Positions 2,936-21,716 are shown, numbered from the stretch's first letter. The stretch: DNA of 33,501 nucleotides from Candidatus Thorarchaeota archaeon (GCA_048882485.1 JBHLRP010000034.1:1-33501), one strand, 5' to 3'. Notes: a model not told the origin generated them from the sequence alone. Translations and numbers: made by a program.

Positions 2936-5335
2936 CTATTCTTGCTCCTTCCGCTGTGGTTCTCTGCCTGTTTCTGCCCTAGGAATCCACACTCGAAATT
3001 CTACACCTTGGTAATGCATTCCTGGCACTCGGTCAAGCACATCAACTCTGCCCTTGTATTTCTCTAGAATCTCTTTGACTTGATGAAGCCCTACGCCTCC
3101 AAAGCGCCGGTTTGGATTGAACAAGTGGTTCTTGGTCGTATTCCGTATTCCTGGTCCGTTATCAGATATTGACACCTCATACCCATGACCCTTCTGCTTA
3201 ATCTCAACCCATATTCGTGGGTCCGGAGAGGGATTGTGTTGGATTGCGTTCTCTAGGAGATTGTCCAAGAGGCACTCTAGAAAAGCATCAGCAAGTATTG
3301 GTGCATAATTGACGGCATATTCTGATTCGATGAGAACTTGGTCATCATCCTCAATCATGGCATTGACACAATCGAATAACACAGCCCTCAGGTCCCTCTG
3401 GACAAGTGGAACGTCAGTAAGATGTTCTGTAGATTTGGCCTTGAGCACAATCCGCTCACATTTCTTAACAGCATCTTCAATCATCTCAATGAGATAACCA
3501 TTATCCAGCGTACTCATCTTCTCCTTGAGAAGCGCGTTACATGACATTATTATCTGGAGTTGGTTGGTCACATCATGTCCCATTAGATCCAAGTATAGCC
3601 TTGCTCTCTGCGAGGTCATCTGCAGCTCCCTCTCGATCCTTTTCCGCTCAGTTATGTCCAAGACGGTTCCTATCATTCGAACAGCTTTGCCATTATCATC
3701 ATAGATGACCTCGCTCCGCGCGTGTACTATTCTTTCTGAACCATCAGGTCTGACTATGCGATGCTCAATCCTGTATGGGTCTTTTCTTGACAATGTCCTG
3801 TCAACAGCCGCTCTAACGTATTCTCTATCATTCGGATGGACAAACTTCAGAAATGATTCGTAGCTTCCAAAGAAATCCTGTGGTGTCACGCCAAAGATGT
3901 TATAGACCTCATCTGACCAATGCAGTTCATCTGCTTGAATGTCCCAGTCCCAATTGCCAAGATGAGCAATCCTTTGGGCTTCCGTAAGACTTGCCTGACT
4001 TTGGAGGAGCGCCGCCTCTGCCTCCTTCCGCTCAGTGATGTTTCTCGCTACACTGACGATGCTCTCTCCATCCTCGTGCAGATCCAGAGTGACTGAGAAC
4101 CAGGACTGATTCCCTCCGCTATCGAGGACATACTCTAAGTCCTGACGGTTTCCTATGGCCCGGACAATTTCAGAAAGTTCTACGTATTGATGAGCCACAT
4201 CCATGGGAAACACTTCAGTCAATTTCTTTCCCAAGAACTCTTCAGGAGGTGCAGGGAGGAACTCAATGCTTGATGAATAGAATTGTGAAAACCGATTGTC
4301 CTCGTTAGTCACAAAGATCATGTCTTTGATTGACTGAATGAGAGTCCGATGCCGCTCCTCACTCTCTCTCAGTGCCTCCTCTGCTTCATGCCGTTCTGTT
4401 ATGTCAAGGGCATACTCGATTATTTTTGTGACATCTCCATTGTGATCAAATATCGGATACGCGTGAATCTCAAAGTATCTAGCATTCCCTGATGCGCTAT
4501 GATGAATATGGTTCACAACCACAGGCTCTCTTCTCACCTTCACCTCTTCAAGTGGACATGGATGGTCTGCACCATCACACGGCCTTTTCTTCTGGTGGGT
4601 GAGAGCAAAGCAGGTTGAGCCATCTTCGAGAACACCAAACCCTGAAGCGTCATTTGCCATTGTGATTGTGTAGTCATTAGCATCGATGACATAGAAGGGA
4701 TGCGTCAAGGACTCTTTCACTCGCTCCAGAAAGTCACGTTGACTTCGTATAGTTTCTTGAGCCGCCCTATACTGGGTGATGTCGAAGAACATGGTCACAA
4801 GACAACATTTCTCCGACCTGTATGCTGATACAGAGAGCCATCGTCCGAGATGCTCAAGATACTGCTCGAACTCGACCCTCTCCCCGGTGAGAACCACTCT
4901 TCCGAGAGTCCCGATCCAGTCAAATTCTGATGTCTGAATACCCGGAAATACGTCGGTCATACTGTTCCCAACGATGTTTCTGCGCTTCATTCCAGTCAGA
5001 CTCTCAAAAGCAGCATTGACCTCCACATAAATGCAGTCGTAGGGGTGGCCTTCGTCATCGAGCATGATTCTAAGATAAGCAAGTGCAATTGGCATATTTC
5101 GAAATAGACGTTGAAATCTGAGTTCACTATCTAGCCGGGACTGAGTGAGAGTTCTGATCATGTTCTGAAAGGCTCCGCTCTTATGTGAGTTTCTCTGTGG
5201 TTTCGATGTCCCGTCCTCAGCATCGATTCCACTTGGAGTATCATCTGACAGATCAGCAGAAGATCTATCTGTTCCACTGTGGGTCGTGCCAGTGGGGATT
5301 GAACCTGCATTGGGATGGTCCCTGAAACTAGTCAT
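2936..5335 (-). CDS. Cytoplasmic 4xPAS sensor histidine kinase
   Basis: Four PAS/PAC units, H-box MGHDVTNQL, N-box NLLENAIQH, G1 SDNGPGI, G2 GGVGL. ATG 5335 overlaps the upstream roadblock stop by 8 nt, which suggests translational coupling. Confidence 0.92.
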   Translation of the reverse strand: MTSFRDHPNAGSIPTGTTHSGTDRSSADLSDDTPSGIDAEDGTSKPQRNSHKSGAFQNMIRTLTQSRLDSELRFQRLFRNMPIALAYLRIMLDDEGHPYDCIYVEVNAAFESLTGMKRRNIVGNSMTDVFPGIQTSEFDWIGTLGRVVLTGERVEFEQYLEHLGRWLSVSAYRSEKCCLVTMFFDITQYRAAQETIRSQRDFLERVKESLTHPFYVIDANDYTITMANDASGFGVLEDGSTCFALTHQKKRPCDGADHPCPLEEVKVRREPVVVNHIHHSASGNARYFEIHAYPIFDHNGDVTKIIEYALDITERHEAEEALRESEERHRTLIQSIKDMIFVTNEDNRFSQFYSSSIEFLPAPPEEFLGKKLTEVFPMDVAHQYVELSEIVRAIGNRQDLEYVLDSGGNQSWFSVTLDLHEDGESIVSVARNITERKEAEAALLQSQASLTEAQRIAHLGNWDWDIQADELHWSDEVYNIFGVTPQDFFGSYESFLKFVHPNDREYVRAAVDRTLSRKDPYRIEHRIVRPDGSERIVHARSEVIYDDNGKAVRMIGTVLDITERKRIERELQMTSQRARLYLDLMGHDVTNQLQIIMSCNALLKEKMSTLDNGYLIEMIEDAVKKCERIVLKAKSTEHLTDVPLVQRDLRAVLFDCVNAMIEDDDQVLIESEYAVNYAPILADAFLECLLDNLLENAIQHNPSPDPRIWVEIKQKGHGYEVSISDNGPGIRNTTKNHLFNPNRRFGGVGLHQVKEILEKYKGRVDVLDRVPGMHYQGVEFRVWIPRAETGREPQRKEQE

Positions 5336-5720
5336 TAATAATGCTCGACTCCCAGTTTCCAAATGCTCTCTCGACCCTCTCAACCGTCCTGCTCAGTTCG
5401 AAGTCTATAAGCCCAATCTCTGAGTCAGAGGGAGCTATTCCGACGAGAAGCATTCGACCAATATCCTTGAGCATCACAGACTTCTCTTCACCGTCAATCC
5501 GCGTCGATCTCAATGTCCCGACGTTCAGTTCTACCCCCACTCGGTTACCTATCGATAGAATGGCTGCAGCCATGGCTGAGACTGCCTTCTCTCCAGCACT
5601 CTCTGGCAGAGAGGAGCTTATCATCTGACCCTTGTCTGAAACAAGGGCAGACCCAATCAGATCGCAGTTCTGTTCCAATTCTCTCAATATTGCATCAAGT
5701 TTGGCCATTCTCTTACTCAA
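5328..5720 (-). CDS. Roadblock/LC7 (MglB-like) protein
   Basis: SALVSDKGQMISSSLP...VSAMAAAILSIG...IGLIDFEL is the typical roadblock pattern; close paralogue of 7932-8294. Confidence 0.9.
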   Translation of the reverse strand: MSKRMAKLDAILRELEQNCDLIGSALVSDKGQMISSSLPESAGEKAVSAMAAAILSIGNRVGVELNVGTLRSTRIDGEEKSVMLKDIGRMLLVGIAPSDSEIGLIDFELSRTVERVERAFGNWESSIIND

Positions 5721-5753
5721 ACCTCTCTCACCCCGTTCTTCCTCGTTCCTGAG

Positions 5754-6191
5754 CTATGCACTCTCCAAGATCTTACGAATATCTCGTTCCGCCTTATTGA
5801 ATAAGTCCTCAATCTTCTCCATAGTCATCCTCTTCTCCACAATCATCCGTCTTCTTAAGATTGAGAACCTCTCGGAGTCCTTTAGCACCGCTCCCATTCG
5901 AAACCGGCGATTGCTAACAAGAAACTCGCTCATCACAATAATCACCCCTAATGTCTTGACCAAGGCAGTTCTTGGGTTGCCAAAGCCGAGGTTCCCACTG
6001 ACTCTGCAAGCTGTGTCTGACATCAGGGAAACCATTGCTGACAAGGTTTCACTGGACGAGCCATCTGTTACCACTCCAGCAACAATCAACCCTCTTTCGC
6101 TGATCACCACAGAGCTGGAAATACTATCATTTGATTTTATTATCATTCTTCTCAGGATTCCTTCAAGCCTGTCAATCTTGCTCATACTCAT
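5754..6191 (-). CDS. Roadblock/LC7-like protein (divergent)
   Basis: SVVISERGLIVAG...LSAMVSLMSDTACRVSGNLGFG pattern, with a basic insert before the C-terminal helix. Confidence 0.75.
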   Translation of the reverse strand: MSMSKIDRLEGILRRMIIKSNDSISSSVVISERGLIVAGVVTDGSSSETLSAMVSLMSDTACRVSGNLGFGNPRTALVKTLGVIIVMSEFLVSNRRFRMGAVLKDSERFSILRRRMIVEKRMTMEKIEDLFNKAERDIRKILESA

Positions 6192-6207
6192 TGTCTATCC
6201 ACCCGCT

Positions 6208-7203
6208 TTACGTGACAGTTTCTTTGTGCAGTTTGACATCCCATCGGTTTACAATATCCCAAATCTCGCTGCTCAAGTTCTCCATCTCGAAAGTCACCAA
6301 TCCAAGCTGTGTAGAGCAAGGGAAGATGCATGCAATTAGAACGTTCTCAGCAATGCTTTTCAGGAGAATCGAGAAGGACACTGCGCCTCCAGAGTCCTCC
6401 GAGTCAACCAGTACTTGCCTGAACAGGTTTGTACTATCCACCATCCGGATAAAGTCCTCAGAGATTGTTACTAGACCAGCAGACATGCTGCTGATCACCA
6501 TTCCCAGTTCTTCTGGCATGGCATCATAGAATAGTTTGTGAGCTATTATGTAGCCGTCCACAGTAAAGACTGTGAGGCCCCACACAGGGACCTTCATCTC
6601 GAAGTTGCTCAGACGCTCTCTGATCTCCTTCACAGGAGGAACCTCGACCTCATCCAGTGCAGTCACAGGCTCTCTCACAGGAGGAGCTTCGGCCTCTTCA
6701 ACTTCTTTCCGCTTTTTCCTCGGTAGAGCCTCTACTTGTTCTGGTTTCACACCAGCATCTTTTACAGGAGGCATCATGCTCTCATCAGATTCCATGATAC
6801 CCTCTGTCAGAGTAGTTTCTTCGACCTCCTTTGAATCCATGAGCTGTTCTTTCACTAGGCGAGTTTCAGCCTTCTCTGGTACCATGACAGATTCTTCTTC
6901 CATATGTGCTTCAGCTTCCTCTGGGTCTATAGCCAGTTCCTTCATGGGATGTGCTTCGACCTCCTCTGGTTCCAGTGCAGTTTCTTCCAGGGATGAAACT
7001 TCGGCCGCCTTCCGTTTCTTTCTCATTGAAGCGACCGCTTTTTCTTGTTTCACACCAATTACTTTTACAGGAGAATCTTCGGCCTTTTCCTGCTCAATGA
7101 TGGTTTCTTTCATATGAGAAGCCTCGGCTTCTTCTGGTTCCCTTAGCATTTCATTTGCAGGATCTGCTTCAGCCTCTTCCGTTTCCTTCCGTTTCCTCTT
7201 CAT
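6208..7203 (-). CDS. Roadblock-domain protein with N-terminal acidic 15-aa tandem repeats
   Basis: C-terminal VFTVDGYIIAH...ISSMSAGLVTIS...QLGLVTFEM is roadblock-like. The N-terminal ~195 aa are Glu/Pro-rich repeats. 4-nt overlap with the GTPase stop. Confidence 0.8.
   Translation of the reverse strand: MKRKRKETEEAEADPANEMLREPEEAEASHMKETIIEQEKAEDSPVKVIGVKQEKAVASMRKKRKAAEVSSLEETALEPEEVEAHPMKELAIDPEEAEAHMEEESVMVPEKAETRLVKEQLMDSKEVEETTLTEGIMESDESMMPPVKDAGVKPEQVEALPRKKRKEVEEAEAPPVREPVTALDEVEVPPVKEIRERLSNFEMKVPVWGLTVFTVDGYIIAHKLFYDAMPEELGMVISSMSAGLVTISEDFIRMVDSTNLFRQVLVDSEDSGGAVSFSILLKSIAENVLIACIFPCSTQLGLVTFEMENLSSEIWDIVNRWDVKLHKETVT
6610..7140 (-). repeat. Degenerate ~45-nt (15-aa) coding tandem repeat, ~12 units
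   Basis: EPEEAEASHMKETII / EQEKAEDSPVKVIGV / EPEEVEAHPMKELAI / DPEEAEAHMEEESVM / VPEKAETRLVKEQLM / KPEQVEALPRKKRKE and others. Confidence 0.8.
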
Positions 7204-7874
7204 GTCACACCACCTCGTACTGCCTTATTGTCTACAGCATTCACTCCACTCTGACTACTAGCGGTTATTTCGTCGAGCTTTCTCAAAAGGAGAACTAGGG
7301 CATCTTTCGCAGACTCACGGTTCTTAGCTGACATGCCAGTTGCTTCAGAGACGCCGAGCCAAGACGCAACATTCTCTGGAGGTACTGCGTCAGCCCTGTC
7401 TTGCTTGTTAGCAACTATCTCCAATGGAATATTTCCAAAGGCGGCCTGAGTTTCAGCCAGAATAGCACACGCATCGCCAATCATAGCGGGATCTGATGAA
7501 TCAACAATCATCAAAACCCCATCAGTGCTGATCCTCATGGTGTCTCTCACGAACTTGAAGTGCAGTTGGCCTGGCACTCCTCTCAGCTCGATCTCCCTAG
7601 CGACCCACCCAGGGTATTCTGATCTCTCGCGCTCATACTCGGACTTGGCTACTATGAGGCCTATATGGCCCACTTCCTTCCTGACCCAGATGACTCTTCC
7701 CAGATCAAAACCTGTTGTCGTGGTGCTCTTCTCACCATGGAACTCCTCTTTCATCTCGCGTTCAATCGAGATAGCATCAGGATCCAGAGTGTGGATCAGG
7801 GTCGTCTTCCCAGCCTGAAAGGGCCCAGTCACATAGACCTTATAGTCATAGGACTTCAGCCGTCGCACAGACAT
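7200..7874 (-). CDS. Small GTPase, MglA/CvnD-like
   Basis: G1 GPFQAGKTT, G2 TTTGFDLG, G3 GVPGQ (Asp-less, as in MglA/CvnD types), G4 NKQD, G5 SAK. Confidence 0.93.
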   Translation of the reverse strand: MSVRRLKSYDYKVYVTGPFQAGKTTLIHTLDPDAISIEREMKEEFHGEKSTTTTGFDLGRVIWVRKEVGHIGLIVAKSEYERERSEYPGWVAREIELRGVPGQLHFKFVRDTMRISTDGVLMIVDSSDPAMIGDACAILAETQAAFGNIPLEIVANKQDRADAVPPENVASWLGVSEATGMSAKNRESAKDALVLLLRKLDEITASSQSGVNAVDNKAVRGGVT

Positions 7875-7931
7875 ATCAGACAGTCTCCGTTTCTGGTACT
7901 GGATGCTGTAGGGCCTCGTTCGCCTTGAGGC

Positions 7932-8294
7932 CTACAGGATCTCCTTGATCTCTCCTGCTGTCTTGTCCATCTCAAAATCGATAAGACCTATCTTTGCACC
8001 CGAGGGAGCAGTGGCAATCAGAGCCGCATCTACAACTCTCCTGACAATCACAGTCTTTTCACTACCCTCGATGACGATGTTCTTTGGTGCTCCAGAATCG
8101 AGTGCTGCACCTACTCGGCTCCCAATGGACAACAGTGCTGCAGACATAGCTGAAACAGCCTTTTCGTCTACGTCCTTGTGAAGTGCTGAGGCCATGACCT
8201 GCCCCTTGTCACTCACCAGAGCGCATCCATCAACCTCGCTGTTTGTTTCCAGTTGCTTTATGCATTCAGTTAGTTTTTTCATCTTCGAGCTCAT
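7932..8294 (-). CDS. Roadblock/LC7 (MglB-like) protein
   Basis: GCALVSDKGQVMASAL...VSAMSAALLSIG...IGLIDFEM. Confidence 0.92.
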   Translation of the reverse strand: MSSKMKKLTECIKQLETNSEVDGCALVSDKGQVMASALHKDVDEKAVSAMSAALLSIGSRVGAALDSGAPKNIVIEGSEKTVIVRRVVDAALIATAPSGAKIGLIDFEMDKTAGEIKEIL

Positions 8295-8435
8295 TTACTA
8301 TCACCTCTTTTCGTAAAATACGCAAGTGTGCCTTTCCTCCGCAGACACGTAGATCTTCTTTTTCTCACACCATACTAGTCCTTGGGGATTCTCATCTCCG
8401 GCATATACACAGTCTGACTTTGACATGATGAGTGA

Positions 8436-8906
8436 TCACTCCAAGGTTATTTTGAAGGCACACGTATTCTTTTCAGGTTGCCAGAGAGCCTCTGAAACAT
8501 TAGCTATCTTTCCCCCACTTTCTGTAATTGCTGCGGTTAGCATGGCCATCCAAGCACATGGAGGAATCAGGGCTGGATCATCACCTCTGATCAAGTTCGT
8601 TGCTGGAATGAGGGCACAATCCGCAAGCTCAATTCCAATCTCGGAATCACTCATGCCTGTGATTGTGACGTTCTGGACAGCACCGAGCTTGTTCATGGCA
8701 TCCACAAAACTCTCCACGGTTGACTTTGCGCCATCACCGCCAAAACCCAGACCTGCATATTCTACAAGTTCGCGGAGATCAACCTCTGCGAATTGAGAAG
8801 AAACCTGACTGATAAGTAGGTCCCCACTCAGACCCATGCGCATCAGTGAACGGGCTACTGCCGCAATGATGATATTGGATACGTTTACTAGATCCTTGTA
8901 TTCCAT
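8436..8906 (-). CDS. V4R/MetOD1-like (Bet3/TRAPP-fold superfamily) ligand- or metal-binding protein
   Basis: Helical N-terminus, then three spaced Cys (ELADCAL, IPPCAW, NTCAFKI) ending in a terminal beta strand, as in V4R-type domains. Confidence 0.65.
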   Translation of the reverse strand: MEYKDLVNVSNIIIAAVARSLMRMGLSGDLLISQVSSQFAEVDLRELVEYAGLGFGGDGAKSTVESFVDAMNKLGAVQNVTITGMSDSEIGIELADCALIPATNLIRGDDPALIPPCAWMAMLTAAITESGGKIANVSEALWQPEKNTCAFKITLE

Positions 8907-9193: not shown

Positions 9194-11719
9194 TTGCGCA
9201 ATGGTATTGAGATAGAGTCTATGGAAGCCAACACGATGTCACGCAGAAGCAATCTGCGTGATCACATCAGAGCGATTTTGTGTGCAAATCCCAGTGGAAT
9301 CTCAATCTCTGATGTTGCTCGAAAAGCCAATGTAAGCAGAAACACCGCTGCAAAGTATCTAGGCATTCTCTTGGCTTCTGGGGAAGTCGAAGTGAATGCC
9401 ATCGGATCTGCTAAGGTTTATTCAATCTCAGGTCGCATGCCACTATCATCTATCTTGAATTCGACATCTGATAATATTGCAGTGATGGACCAACATCTCA
9501 GGGTTGTGCGCGCGAATGGAAACTTCCTCAGACTCCTCAATATGGACCAAGATGAACTCATTGGGCGGTCTGCCACTGAGGTTGCCTCATCGTTCCGGTC
9601 CTCTAGTGATGCCACTGAAATTCTCGACGAAGTCCTTGTCAAGCTGGATAATGCATTGGAGGGAAAGCACGTAGTCCATGAATTGAGTGCAGAAATCGAT
9701 GGGAAAGAAAAGCATTTCTCTATGAAACTGGTTCCCACAAAATTTGAGAATGGAGAATATGGTGTGACAGCCATCTTTGAGGACACCACAGAGAGAAAAC
9801 TGGCCCAGAACGCAGCAGTTCATCAACGTGACTTTCTCGAAAAAGTGATTGAGTCTCTGATTCATCCGTTCTATGTCATAGATGTTCATAATCACCGTGT
9901 CAAGATTGCAAACAAATCGGCGAATTTTGGTCCTTTGACGGAAGATTCCAAGTGCTACTATCTCACCCACTGGAGGGACAAGCCATGCACTGGATTGGAT
10001 CACCCCTGTCCGCTGAATGAGGTCAAGAGAACGAAGAAGCCCGTCATTGTGGAACACGCTCATTATGACATTGAGAGCGGCAGAGTGAGGTTCTTTGAGG
10101 TGCATGGCATTCCAATCTTTGATAGTAGAGAAAATGTAGTTCAGATGATAGAGTACAATCTGGACATTACTGAACACAAGATTGCAGAACAAAAGGTCAG
10201 GAGCGGAGAGGTGACATTCCAGAGCTTCATTGAACAGTCAACCGATGGAATTGTCCTTGCTGATGAAAATGGACTAGTTGTTGAATGGAATGCTGTTCTG
10301 GAACACATCACAGGTATGACTCGTTCCCAGGCCATAGGGCAGTATATCTGGGAGGTCATTGTCAATTACATGTCGCCCGAAAAAAAGAGCCAAGAAACAG
10401 CGCAGAGGATTAGAAATTGGATTATAACAGCATTAGAGAATGGAGAAGTCCCTCTCGCCAAATCACCCTATACTTTTGATGTGGTGCTCCCCGATGGAGA
10501 TATTCGTGTGATTCAGGTTTCCATGTTCCCTATCAACACTGACACTGGTTATATGTTGGGATCCATACTTCGTGATGTCACTGACCGGCATCGGGCAGTA
10601 ACTGAGATTCGGCGGTCAGAAAAGAAGTATAGAACACTGTATGAGAACATGCCGGATGGTTTTGTCCGGTGTGACCTAGATGGCAAGTTCTTGGAATTTA
10701 ATAAGTCGTATCTAGAGATTGTCGGATACAGTTCTGACGAGCTTCAAGAACTAACATTCTGGGATATCTCGCCTGTAAAATGGCATGAAATGGAACAGAG
10801 GGTGATAAGCGAGCAAATCTTGCCCTACGGATACTGCGATGTCTTTGAGAAGGAGTATGAGAAGAAGGACGGTTCTGTGGCTTCTGTGGAGGTGAGAATA
10901 CATGCCGAACTGGATGATGAGGGACAGATGATTGGCACCTGGGCTCTTGTACGTGACATCACGAAACGTAAGCACGTTGAAACGGAACTGGAGAAGAGTA
11001 AGAACAAATATCGACACCTTTTCAACTCAAGTCGTGACGGCATTGTATTCACAACGATGGAGGGTTTCTTTATGGAAGCCAATCCTGCATTTATCGAAAT
11101 GACGGGTTATGACATGGCAGAGCTGAGATCCCTGACATACCATCAGCTGACGCCTGAACATTGGTTGAAGAATGAAGCCAAGATACACGAAGCTCAGGTC
11201 ATGAAGAGAGGGTATTCTGATGAGTATGAGAAGGAGTACATTCGAAAAGACGGTACAGCTTTCCTCGCTATGATTCGGACATGGCTGCTAAGAGATGATG
11301 AAGACAATCCAGTGGGAGTCGTTGCCATGATTCGCGACATAACTGAGAGAAAGAAGGTCAGAGAAGCTCTGAGAGACAGCGAAGAGCAATATCAATTGAC
11401 TCTCAACTCGATAAGTGACGCATTGTTTGTGGTTGACGATGAGCTTCGAATTGTTCTGACCAATCAAGCATTTGAACGGTGGTGTGGAACCATTGGTGTC
11501 AATGAGAAGGTTATTGGAATGGAGATATATGAGGCATTTCCCTTCTTCCAAATGAAGCTCATCAGTGATTATCAACATATACTCAAGACTGGCGAAGTCC
11601 TGCATACATCGAATTCGATTGTCGTGGCGGGAATTGAACACCTTACGGAGATGTCGAAAATACCAATCTTCAGAACAGGCTCGGTGGCACAGGTTCTTAC
11701 AATCGTCAAGAATACATAG
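9194..11719 (+). CDS. Winged-HTH plus 6xPAS one-component regulator
   Basis: ISISDVARKANVSRNTAAKYL HTH followed by six PAS/PAC units; no kinase domain. True start may be ATG 9221 or 9236. Confidence 0.88.
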   Translation: MRNGIEIESMEANTMSRRSNLRDHIRAILCANPSGISISDVARKANVSRNTAAKYLGILLASGEVEVNAIGSAKVYSISGRMPLSSILNSTSDNIAVMDQHLRVVRANGNFLRLLNMDQDELIGRSATEVASSFRSSSDATEILDEVLVKLDNALEGKHVVHELSAEIDGKEKHFSMKLVPTKFENGEYGVTAIFEDTTERKLAQNAAVHQRDFLEKVIESLIHPFYVIDVHNHRVKIANKSANFGPLTEDSKCYYLTHWRDKPCTGLDHPCPLNEVKRTKKPVIVEHAHYDIESGRVRFFEVHGIPIFDSRENVVQMIEYNLDITEHKIAEQKVRSGEVTFQSFIEQSTDGIVLADENGLVVEWNAVLEHITGMTRSQAIGQYIWEVIVNYMSPEKKSQETAQRIRNWIITALENGEVPLAKSPYTFDVVLPDGDIRVIQVSMFPINTDTGYMLGSILRDVTDRHRAVTEIRRSEKKYRTLYENMPDGFVRCDLDGKFLEFNKSYLEIVGYSSDELQELTFWDISPVKWHEMEQRVISEQILPYGYCDVFEKEYEKKDGSVASVEVRIHAELDDEGQMIGTWALVRDITKRKHVETELEKSKNKYRHLFNSSRDGIVFTTMEGFFMEANPAFIEMTGYDMAELRSLTYHQLTPEHWLKNEAKIHEAQVMKRGYSDEYEKEYIRKDGTAFLAMIRTWLLRDDEDNPVGVVAMIRDITERKKVREALRDSEEQYQLTLNSISDALFVVDDELRIVLTNQAFERWCGTIGVNEKVIGMEIYEAFPFFQMKLISDYQHILKTGEVLHTSNSIVVAGIEHLTEMSKIPIFRTGSVAQVLTIVKNT

Positions 11720-20819: not shown

Positions 20820-21716
20820 TTAATATTCAGTGTCAATCTGTTCGAAGAAAGCATCATCAATCTCATTGATTGCGTACTGCTCCACCACTTCCACTCCAAG
20901 GCCATGGTCAATCATCAGCTCTGCAAGCTTCTCTCCATCAACGAGAACAACACTGGGATCCCTCTGTTCCATTGCAGGCTTTGAAAACTGTGAGGTTGTG
21001 ATGAGTATCCCCTTCCTTGCCCCCTTCCTAGCAAGGGCCCCCTCGAAGGCAGTCACCACAGGATCTCCGACTGTCCTATCCCATTGTTTGGCTTGAATGT
21101 ATATCTTGTAGAGCCCAAGCTTGTCCTGCCAGATGATTCCGTCTATTCCTTGGTCACCGGAACCACCAGTAACGAAAGATGAGTCTTCAAGACCGTATCC
21201 CATCTTGTTCAGAAGTTTCACAACGAGGCGCTCAAAGGCGCGATAAGATATCTCTCTTGTCTTCTTCAGGACGTCCTGCACTAAGATGCTTCTGAGTTCC
21301 TTGCAATTTTCAATCATAGACTCTCGCGGTCCACCAGGAGTCTCCTCCTCTTCTTCTCTCTCCTTGTCCTTCTTTATACGTTCTCTATGTTCCCGATACT
21401 TCTCGAACTTCATGAGATATTTCCTATCCATCTGCTCAACACCAGATTCCAGCTCCTCTTTTCCATCGGGTGTGATGAGGAACTTGCCTCGTCCAGCAGG
21501 TTCGAGGAGTCCCGCACGTTTCAGTTCATGTAGTGCCCAACCAACACGATTGCTGATGACTGACTGTCCATGCTTCAAGGTTCTAGCTCTATCCTCCTTC
21601 GATAGCTTGAACTCATCAGCCACGGCACTGACCACGTCCTTGAAGACCTTGACTTCGCCATCGCTAGCATATCTCAGAAGTGTGATCATACATTCTTGAA
21701 ACGAAGGTATTGTCAT
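20820..21716 (-). CDS. mrr: Mrr type IV restriction endonuclease
   Basis: Mrr N-terminus (MTIPSFQ...NRVGWA...KRAGLLE) and catalytic FERLVVKLL.KMGYG...DQGIDG...YIQAKQW. Confidence 0.93.
   Translation of the reverse strand: MTIPSFQECMITLLRYASDGEVKVFKDVVSAVADEFKLSKEDRARTLKHGQSVISNRVGWALHELKRAGLLEPAGRGKFLITPDGKEELESGVEQMDRKYLMKFEKYREHRERIKKDKEREEEEETPGGPRESMIENCKELRSILVQDVLKKTREISYRAFERLVVKLLNKMGYGLEDSSFVTGGSGDQGIDGIIWQDKLGLYKIYIQAKQWDRTVGDPVVTAFEGALARKGARKGILITTSQFSKPAMEQRDPSVVLVDGEKLAELMIDHGLGVEVVEQYAINEIDDAFFEQIDTEY

Follow-up and report, generated by a model that had tools for sequence, protein, structure and literature searches.

Small GTPases, roadblock/longin proteins and Bet3-fold proteins occur by the dozen in Asgard genomes. 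In the eukaryotic TRAPP core, Bet3-fold subunits flank longin dimers, which open the nucleotide pocket of a small GTPase. In Ragulator–Rag (LAMTOR1-5, RagA/C), several roadblock proteins stand beside small GTPases, and in the MglA–MglB systems of Myxococcus and Thermus a GTPase stands beside one roadblock protein, MglB. Actinobacterial conservons bring together a kinase (CvnA), a roadblock protein (CvnB), a DUF742 protein (CvnC) and an MglA-type GTPase (CvnD). In the cultured strain MK-D1, according to the structural study of Tran et al. 2024 (PMC10933270), GTPase genes as a rule do not share operons with genes for roadblock, longin or TRAPPC3 proteins, which makes it hard to match a GTPase to its regulators. 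Most such Asgard genes lie outside conserved neighbourhoods, according to Liu et al. (10.1101/2020.10.19.343400). Here we describe a conserved exception to this non-operonic pattern, i.e., a cluster of eight minus-strand genes at positions 2936–8906 of a 33,501-nucleotide (nt) stretch of DNA from a Candidatus Thorarchaeota archaeon (GCA_048882485.1, JBHLRP010000034.1:1-33501), which is called the window below.

The cluster is probably an instance of a modular signalling cassette of Asgard archaea that is built on a small GTPase switch. The window is the complete contig C34 of a 3.96 Mb host genome that is 90.5% complete, and the nearest homologues of the window's genes come from records labelled Candidatus Thorarchaeota. 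The eight genes of the cluster are as follows:

8436–8906, minus strand: g1, here called T3V, 156 amino acids (aa), with a predicted Bet3/TRAPPC3/V4R fold, from a small family without a name in the Pfam copy scanned
8301–8426, minus strand: a cysteine-rich miniprotein of 41 aa, conserved in relatives
7932–8294, minus strand: g2, a canonical roadblock/LC7 protein (MglB-like) of 120 aa, matching Pfam Robl_LC7
7200–7874, minus strand: g3, a small Ras-superfamily GTPase of 224 aa, of the MglA group 2–5 type by its motifs
6208–7203, minus strand: g4, here called RBx, 331 aa, with a predicted divergent roadblock domain (about 6208–6663) and an N-terminal extension (about 6664–7203)
5754–6191, minus strand: g5, here called RBy, 145 aa, a second divergent roadblock according to profile methods
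5328–5720, minus strand: g6, a second canonical roadblock of 130 aa, paralogue of g2
2936–5335, minus strand: g7, a presumably soluble four-PAS histidine kinase, whose longest frame (2936–5383) begins at TTG 5383

A sequence-only reading of this DNA had counted seven co-directional genes. Their positions and shared direction were borne out, but the number is eight, the miniprotein at 8301–8426 having been missed; it lies inside the 141-nt gap between g1 and g2, which is the sole long intergenic gap in the cluster. Of the two short overlaps on which that reading had remarked, the 4-nt overlap of g3 and g4 (7200–7203) is exact, and the 8-nt overlap of g6 with the kinase gene (5328–5335) holds if the kinase starts at ATG 5335, i.e., at residue 17 of the TTG-started longest frame, and not at TTG 5383.

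To place the cluster among its relatives, 75 loci were labelled by open reading frame (ORF) calling and by hidden Markov models made from family alignments. These loci are the window and 74 GTPase-centred public archaeal loci, mostly Asgard, from a scan of one genome per species; they bear the labels Thor-, Hermod-, Hel-, Baldr-, Atabey- and Freyarchaeota and other Promethearchaeota, with distant ones labelled Thermoproteota and Halobacteriota. The counts describe this sample and are not frequencies, as some contigs break off within reach of the cluster and the genomes are related to one another. A core of GTPase, RBx and RBy, with RBx and RBy always adjacent, is present in 30 of the 75 loci, and its order is kept across Thor-, Hermod-, Hel- and Promethearchaeota-labelled records. 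Because the core recurs in so many loci, the arrangement is far beyond chance. Among these 30 core loci, a roadblock gene lies directly upstream of the GTPase gene in 26 and a further (fourth) roadblock follows RBy in 14, while the upstream slot is filled by T3V in 11 and by a Pfam-type V4R gene in 4. A histidine kinase gene lies downstream in 4, and some PAS or kinase gene is nearby in 9. The number of roadblocks ranges from two to four among the relatives, with one GTPase gene per cassette. The full order of T3V, roadblock, GTPase, RBx, RBy, roadblock and kinase was seen in the window only. The genomic coupling of a GTPase to several roadblocks and a V4R/Bet3-fold protein, as first read from the window, is upheld by this survey for the order of the core, the full arrangement being particular to the window.

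A match to the GTPase (E ≤ 1e-10) was found in 15 of 41 related genomes, and in 8 of 13 stretches around GTPase matches the genes run roadblock, GTPase, RBx, RBy, or in a closely similar order. When loci were instead centred on T3V, the T3V gene was followed directly by a roadblock gene in 28 of 30. The host genome itself has a second and fuller copy of the cassette, on contig C91 (L013:292-7404), the GTPase of which is 77% identical. The order there is PAS protein, miniprotein, T3V, miniprotein, roadblock, GTPase, RBx, RBy and PAS kinase, with a winged-helix protein (about 184 aa) coming last, and a fourth roadblock is absent. The kinase position recurs in this copy and in three related public loci. 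Winged-helix proteins of about 180 aa flank many cassettes and stand after the kinase in L013, L014 and L015; a tblastn search of the window found no such gene (best E 0.47). The upstream slot of L018 is occupied by a protein that matches both Pfam V4R (7e-10) and XylR_N (5.9e-7), an architecture of phenol-sensing domains. Two further loci are of note: L093 (Halobacteriota-labelled) has, within 12 kb, GTPases of about 390 aa from the same superfamily, five roadblock genes and five V4R genes, and L080 (Atabeyarchaeum) has three V4R genes beside roadblock–GTPase–roadblock. L093 and L080 show that the V4R–roadblock–GTPase linkage is not confined to the present cassette.

In the GTPase, g3, the P-loop (GPFQAGKT) is intact, as are the NKQD and SAK motifs. 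Its switch I (GEKSTTTTGFD) contains no Arg, the G2 region being TTTTGFD, and its G3 motif is GVPGQ, without the Asp; none of 35 diverse relatives departs from the Gly-x-Pro-Gly. In MglA groups 2–5, a Thr replaces the group 1 arginine finger in G2 and G3 is GTPGQ, and only MglA has lost the G3 aspartate, as stated in PMC4316618 (Wuichet and Sogaard-Andersen 2014). By the motifs named in that paper (GxPGQ, Thr in G2), g3 falls within MglA groups 2–5. Group 1 was considered and rejected, since there is no arginine finger near the G2 threonine and the G3 motif is GVPGQ rather than TVPGQ. A profile of the g3 family ranked Asgard ArfR structures first (6.1e-16), followed by Arf/Arl (about 1e-11) and MglA (1.7e-10), while MglA was among the tied best structural matches and gave the lowest root-mean-square deviation (2.0–2.3 Å). 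By sequence and fold, g3 is as near to Arf-like proteins as to MglA. The name "MglA-like", under which this GTPase was first read, is thus supported by the motifs, the profile score being slightly nearer to Arf/ArfR than to MglA. The protein has one G domain, into which about 35 aa are inserted between strands 2 and 3, and a long C-terminal helix; no roadblock domain was found within it. Because g3 is without an arginine finger and has Gly where the G3 aspartate would stand, it most likely needs partners for nucleotide cycling.

The candidates for such partners include four predicted roadblock proteins of three kinds, i.e., the canonical g2 and g6, RBx (g4) and RBy (g5). The first two are clear from Pfam Robl_LC7 (PF03259), with E 4.4e-10 and 39.6 bits for g2 and E 2.9e-11 and 43.4 bits for g6 (cut-off 23), and are 48% identical to each other by BLASTP (E 5e-35). 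RBx and RBy fall under the same cut-off (E 0.027 and 0.025; 14.6 and 14.7 bits, respectively). Family alignments of their relatives, A2 for RBx and A3 for RBy, were therefore built for profile comparison, and the best PDB matches of both families are roadblock proteins. The RBx profile matched the roadblock 7f8m at 8.8e-9 and MglB at 1.9e-3, and aligned by hhalign with canonical roadblocks at 98.7% over 123 columns (E 3.9e-16). The RBy profile matched the roadblock 9jue at 2.8e-3 and CvnB5 at 7.7e-3, and aligned with canonical roadblocks at 97.4% over 89 columns (E 9.3e-12). The count of four roadblocks made from the DNA was right, although only g2 and g6 pass Pfam and g4 and g5 need profile–profile comparison to be recognised.

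RBx also carries an acidic and presumably disordered N-terminal extension of 180 aa with 24% Glu, a net charge of −21 and three KRKRK/RKKRK patches. The extension is absent from relatives, or shorter (0 to about 120 aa) and unrelated. No DNA tandem repeat runs across it, there being just one 22-bp repeat (7176–7197) at its 5′ end. As a side observation, the KRKRK/RKKRK patches resemble basic clusters of the nuclear-localisation type.

T3V, the product of g1, could be placed by its predicted fold and not by its sequence. It has no match in Pfam or NCBIfam. Across the whole genome at E ≤ 10, the V4R model matches 7 places and the TRAPP/Bet3 model (PF04051) two places, both on C6, with none for either model on C34. 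None of 44 aligned members of the T3V family matches Pfam V4R (PF02830) or TRAPP, and ATC_hydrolase matches 2 of the 44, at best with 0.029. Placement by sequence was tried and rejected: a PDB search gave only chance matches to leucine-rich repeats, and hhalign against V4R gave 1%. A profile run exhaustively against 1.84 billion representatives returned only 46 relatives of g1 at E ≤ 1e-3, with lengths of about 155 aa in nearly every case. Matches to T3V at E ≤ 1e-5 are present in 129 of 400 genomes, the weaker ones being in many cases partial and within frames of about 350 aa. An AlphaFold2 model made on the 44-sequence alignment has a predicted local distance difference test score (pLDDT) of 95.4 and a predicted template modelling score of 0.89. 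With this model, Foldseek gave TRAPPC3/Bet3, YslB, the PoxR phenol-sensor domain and H-NOX as the best matches (best E 5.3e-4). A separate kind of hint comes from language-model look-alikes, which are RdxA_C, ATC_hydrolase and TRAPP clusters (0.90–0.94). The HNOB, V4R and ATC hydrolase domains are described as similar in PMC5847659. The model indicates that T3V has a fold of the V4R/TRAPP(Bet3)/H-NOX superfamily across its whole domain, outside Pfam V4R. The label "V4R" that was put on g1 from the DNA is consequently supported by the predicted fold only, there being no match to Pfam V4R or TRAPP and no relation to V4R in sequence. The same genome has a separate Bet3/V4R-type cluster on contig C6 (about 62099–66054; L026, L032, L033), with three frames that the Pfam models V4R and/or TRAPP recognise; C17 encodes a fourth V4R protein.

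The miniprotein accompanies T3V closely. It was found by tblastn in 30 of 30 T3V-centred loci and in 17 of the 74 GTPase-centred loci; in 15 of the 18 T3V-bearing loci of the latter set it lies 6–20 nt behind T3V, and it was found at 0 of 9 loci with a Pfam-type V4R gene. Residues C6, W19, C20, K22, K23 and C35 do not vary among 35 aligned copies, a fourth cysteine is present towards the N-terminus in some, and a second copy stands upstream of T3V in several cassettes, including that on C91. The miniprotein has no Pfam family and no named Atlas cluster; its exact sequence is already on record, with a cluster representative that NCBI calls a "hypothetical protein".

The same module also occurs in 41 longer proteins at E ≤ 1e-3, most of which are GNAT and/or HEAT-repeat proteins labelled Promethearchaeota or Lokiarchaeota. 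The GNAT or GNAT/HEAT fusions labelled Promethearchaeota are 200–500 aa long, and in the one fusion that was aligned the module occupies residues 433–469 of 487, near the C-terminus. In L068–L070 (Promethearchaeota-labelled), miniprotein matches lie in longer ORFs one or two genes downstream of GTPase–RBx, and that lineage has T3V, miniprotein, roadblock and RBx in a single operon that is divergent from GTPase–RBx. Separately, L023/L078 have a gene for a 244-aa GNAT protein between T3V and the GTPase.

A possible contact of the miniprotein was approached by complex prediction with ESMFold2 in one three-chain case, the miniprotein versus T3V and g2, with 3 controls. The median score was 0.55 (0.50, 0.55, 0.60), the best control gave 0.00, and the score dropped to 0.00 once T3V was replaced. 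The runs share at least 97% of contacts, with a partner pLDDT of at least 81. The pass mark of this procedure is reached by 116 of 157 solved complexes and by 2 of 215 mismatches, and scores of at most 0.60 belong to only 18 of the 157 solved complexes plus both passing mismatches. Because this score combines with the invariant adjacency of the miniprotein and T3V, there is modest support for a predicted docking of the miniprotein on T3V rather than on the roadblock.

From the identities, folds, motifs and conserved linkage described above, we infer the following contacts, direction of signalling and output for the modular cassette. By analogy with MglB on MglA, roadblock dimers would dock on the switch face of the GTPase and control its nucleotide cycling. 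One dimer would be formed by g2, together with g6 where this is present, and another by RBx and RBy as an obligate heterodimer, the two never being apart in the 30 core loci. T3V and the miniprotein may act as a small-molecule or metal-dependent sensor that feeds the roadblock–GTPase complex; a sensory role of T3V is suggested because a sensor-type V4R protein fills the same slot in other cassettes. A metal site shared by T3V and the miniprotein, made from the five cysteines of the pair, may be conjectured. The four-PAS kinase of the window copy would be an added second input or an effector, and the PAS kinase, the GNAT/HEAT proteins and the winged-helix proteins would be exchangeable accessories.

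Several results weigh against this reading. No output component lies in the window copy, from which the winged-helix gene common among relatives is missing. The cassette has a patchy distribution: of 400 genomes from the phylum, 54 have RBx at E ≤ 1e-15, and the figures are 23 of 85 for the same family but only 2 of 16 for the other members of the genus, with many incomplete genomes in these sets. RBx and RBy show no direct likeness to each other by hhalign (1.5%), and co-occurrence is the sole basis on which they are paired. The docking result was graded as weak support, and for the miniprotein alone. The hhalign value of 1% for the g1 family was obtained against the genome's own V4R proteins. 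Finally, C97 and C117 are the only nearly invariant cysteines in 44 T3V sequences, whereas the V4R/TRAPPC3 zinc site has a cluster of three to four conserved ones, by which the sheet is tethered to a helix; the miniprotein adds three invariant cysteines. Because T3V keeps only two, binding of a ligand or metal by it is a conjecture.

The strongest competing explanation is that T3V (with the miniprotein) and the roadblock dimers together form one multi-subunit exchange factor for the GTPase, in the manner of a forerunner of TRAPP. This explanation would account for the direct succession of T3V and roadblock in 28 of the 30 T3V-centred loci and for a GTPase that is without catalytic helpers of its own, and it gains from the finding that the TRAPP longin dimer binds Rab1 in an MglA/MglB-like geometry (PMC10933270). 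We nevertheless regard it as unlikely, as a Bet3-fold subunit is not obligatory, the slot being taken by a sensor-type V4R protein in 4 of the 30 core loci and by neither protein in 15, and g3 is not Rab-like. A bolder version is similarly doubtful, namely that the cassette is a platform resembling a forerunner of TRAPP/Ragulator, in which T3V, clamped by the miniprotein through a shared metal site, would join two different roadblock dimers for exchange on, or activation of, an MglA/Arf-like GTPase, while the miniprotein module would be a portable docking tag that recruits, e.g., GNAT/HEAT acetyltransferases.

The remaining serious alternative turns on g7, the kinase. Pfam finds four PAS stretches and HATPase_c (1.8e-15) in this protein, with no match to HisKA and no HAMP domain. 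In an alignment of five kinases (g7, three related cassette kinases and the window's other kinase), the H-box His (LMGHDVTNQL) is invariant in 5 of 5, and the N, G1 (DNGPGI) and G2 (GGxGL) boxes are conserved in the four cassette kinases. Judged by these motifs, g7 looks catalytically competent, and its identification as a histidine kinase in the sequence-only reading was correct. The C-terminus of g7 is ...WIPRAETGREPQRKEQE, without LPxR. That reading had also made the kinase the defining input of the system, which does not hold, as only 4 of the 30 core loci have a downstream histidine kinase; the kinase is a variable accessory outside the conserved module.

A conservon-like working, in which the PAS kinase is the sensor and signals to the GTPase via the roadblocks, as has been proposed for CvnA-D, is accordingly rather improbable. 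It would fit the 8-nt overlap of the kinase and g6, the recurrence of the kinase position in three related public loci and C91, and the shortage of receivers: the Pfam Response_reg model has 7 matches in the genome against 21 of HATPase_c, and none on C34, so that the window is indeed free of a response regulator, as had been read from the DNA. It is argued in PMC4316618 that conservons use the GTPase as output because they lack a response regulator. However, apart from the rarity of the kinase in core loci, no DUF742/CvnC protein was found, the kinase is of a presumably soluble PAS type without an LPxR tail, and the winged-helix protein that follows the kinase in L013, L014 and L015 suggests an ordinary transcriptional route. 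Moreover, orphan PAS kinases are common in this genome, so that a missing neighbouring receiver is weak evidence.

It is very improbable that these are unrelated neighbours, in which case roadblock, GTPase and kinase genes without a common function would lie together in a genome that has numerous such paralogues (18 Robl_LC7 matches and many PAS kinases), as the generally non-operonic GTPase genes of MK-D1 noted above might suggest. Against this, 30 of 75 loci under several Asgard labels share the gene order, the 4- and 8-nt overlaps are translational, and the families of RBx, RBy, T3V and the miniprotein are narrow and occur essentially in this context only.

Upstream of the cassette lies one further gene that is possibly tied to it:

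9194–11719, plus strand: a multi-PAS protein of 841 aa, divergently transcribed, a possible associated regulator

Pfam PAS_4 matches this protein in 6 stretches, and there is a weak N-terminal match to DUF7342 (2.4e-4). Its N-terminal 400 aa are 38–40% identical to the PAS proteins upstream of T3V in L013 and L014, a likeness from which a regulatory tie to the cassette is possible. On the other side of the cassette, convergent with it, a second PAS histidine kinase is encoded at 634–2085 on the plus strand; in the kinase alignment its G1 box is degenerate (SDIEPGV versus DNGPGI). A 90-aa ORF at 2635–2907 has no Pfam match. Elsewhere in the window, a gene for an Mrr-type restriction endonuclease lies at 20820–21716 on the minus strand (Mrr_cat 3.9e-33, Mrr_N 3.7e-23), most other large ORFs are without a Pfam family, and no tRNAs were found.

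The literature that was searched contains no description of the cassette, although supplementary tables, e.g., the asCOG neighbourhoods of Liu et al., may list it; the cassette is a variant of GTPase–roadblock modules that is absent from that literature. One GTPase family gains candidate partners, i.e., up to four roadblocks, a Bet3-fold protein and a miniprotein that had escaped remark, all of which are small, soluble and co-expressible. If these proteins assemble, the question of whether archaea have Bet3 and roadblock/longin GTPase platforms, with the logic of TRAPP or Ragulator, becomes directly testable. If they do not, the cassette is still a clean example of modular GTPase–roadblock signalling with exchangeable sensors (T3V or V4R) and enzymes (PAS kinase, GNAT).

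We note the following likenesses and differences between the cassette and described systems. First, the Asgard operon of a LAMTOR1-like roadblock, a Rab-like GTPase and a DENN protein, reported by Liu et al. (10.1101/2020.10.19.343400), is likewise a conserved roadblock–GTPase neighbourhood, whereas the cassette has a GTPase of another family and no DENN, and has instead a Bet3-fold protein, the miniprotein and RBx/RBy. Second, Ragulator–Rag resembles the cassette in having several roadblocks, plausibly as heterodimers, beside a small GTPase. The likeness goes no further: Rag GTPases have a C-terminal roadblock domain and form a heterodimeric pair, whereas g3 is a single G domain from a single gene with neither feature, and no LAMTOR1-like scaffold was identified in the cassette. 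Third, the conservon shares with the cassette a kinase, a roadblock and an MglA-type GTPase without a response regulator. However, CvnA is a membrane HAMP kinase with an LPxR tail (PMC4316618), whereas g7 is a presumably soluble PAS kinase, which is usually absent from the relatives; the cassette has extra roadblocks and a Bet3-fold protein, and none of the seven larger proteins, nor the miniprotein family, has a Pfam match to CvnC/DUF742 (E ≤ 0.1). The cassette is thus no conservon, and its description in the sequence-only reading as intermediate between conservons and Ragulator was an analogy, with no relationship shown.

Fourth, the TRAPP core, beside which a Thorarchaeota TRAPPC3 structure (7yh3) also exists (Tran et al. 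2024, PMC10933270), has longins as partners and Rab1 as GTPase, whereas the cassette has roadblocks rather than longins, a GTPase that is not Rab-like and a g1 that is missed by the Pfam TRAPP model. As an analogy, a TRAPP-like composition, i.e., a Bet3 fold with roadblock/longin-like dimers and a GTPase, is at least as apt as the earlier one. Like the MglA group 2–5/MglB pairs (PMC4316618), the cassette has a GTPase without the G3 aspartate beside roadblocks. It differs in having three or four roadblock genes rather than one, two of them very divergent, in adding the Bet3-fold protein, the cysteine miniprotein and the GTPase insertion of about 35 aa, and in lacking a motility context. Of all these systems, the cassette probably works most like the MglA/MglB pairs, and by its motifs it belongs with groups 2–5.

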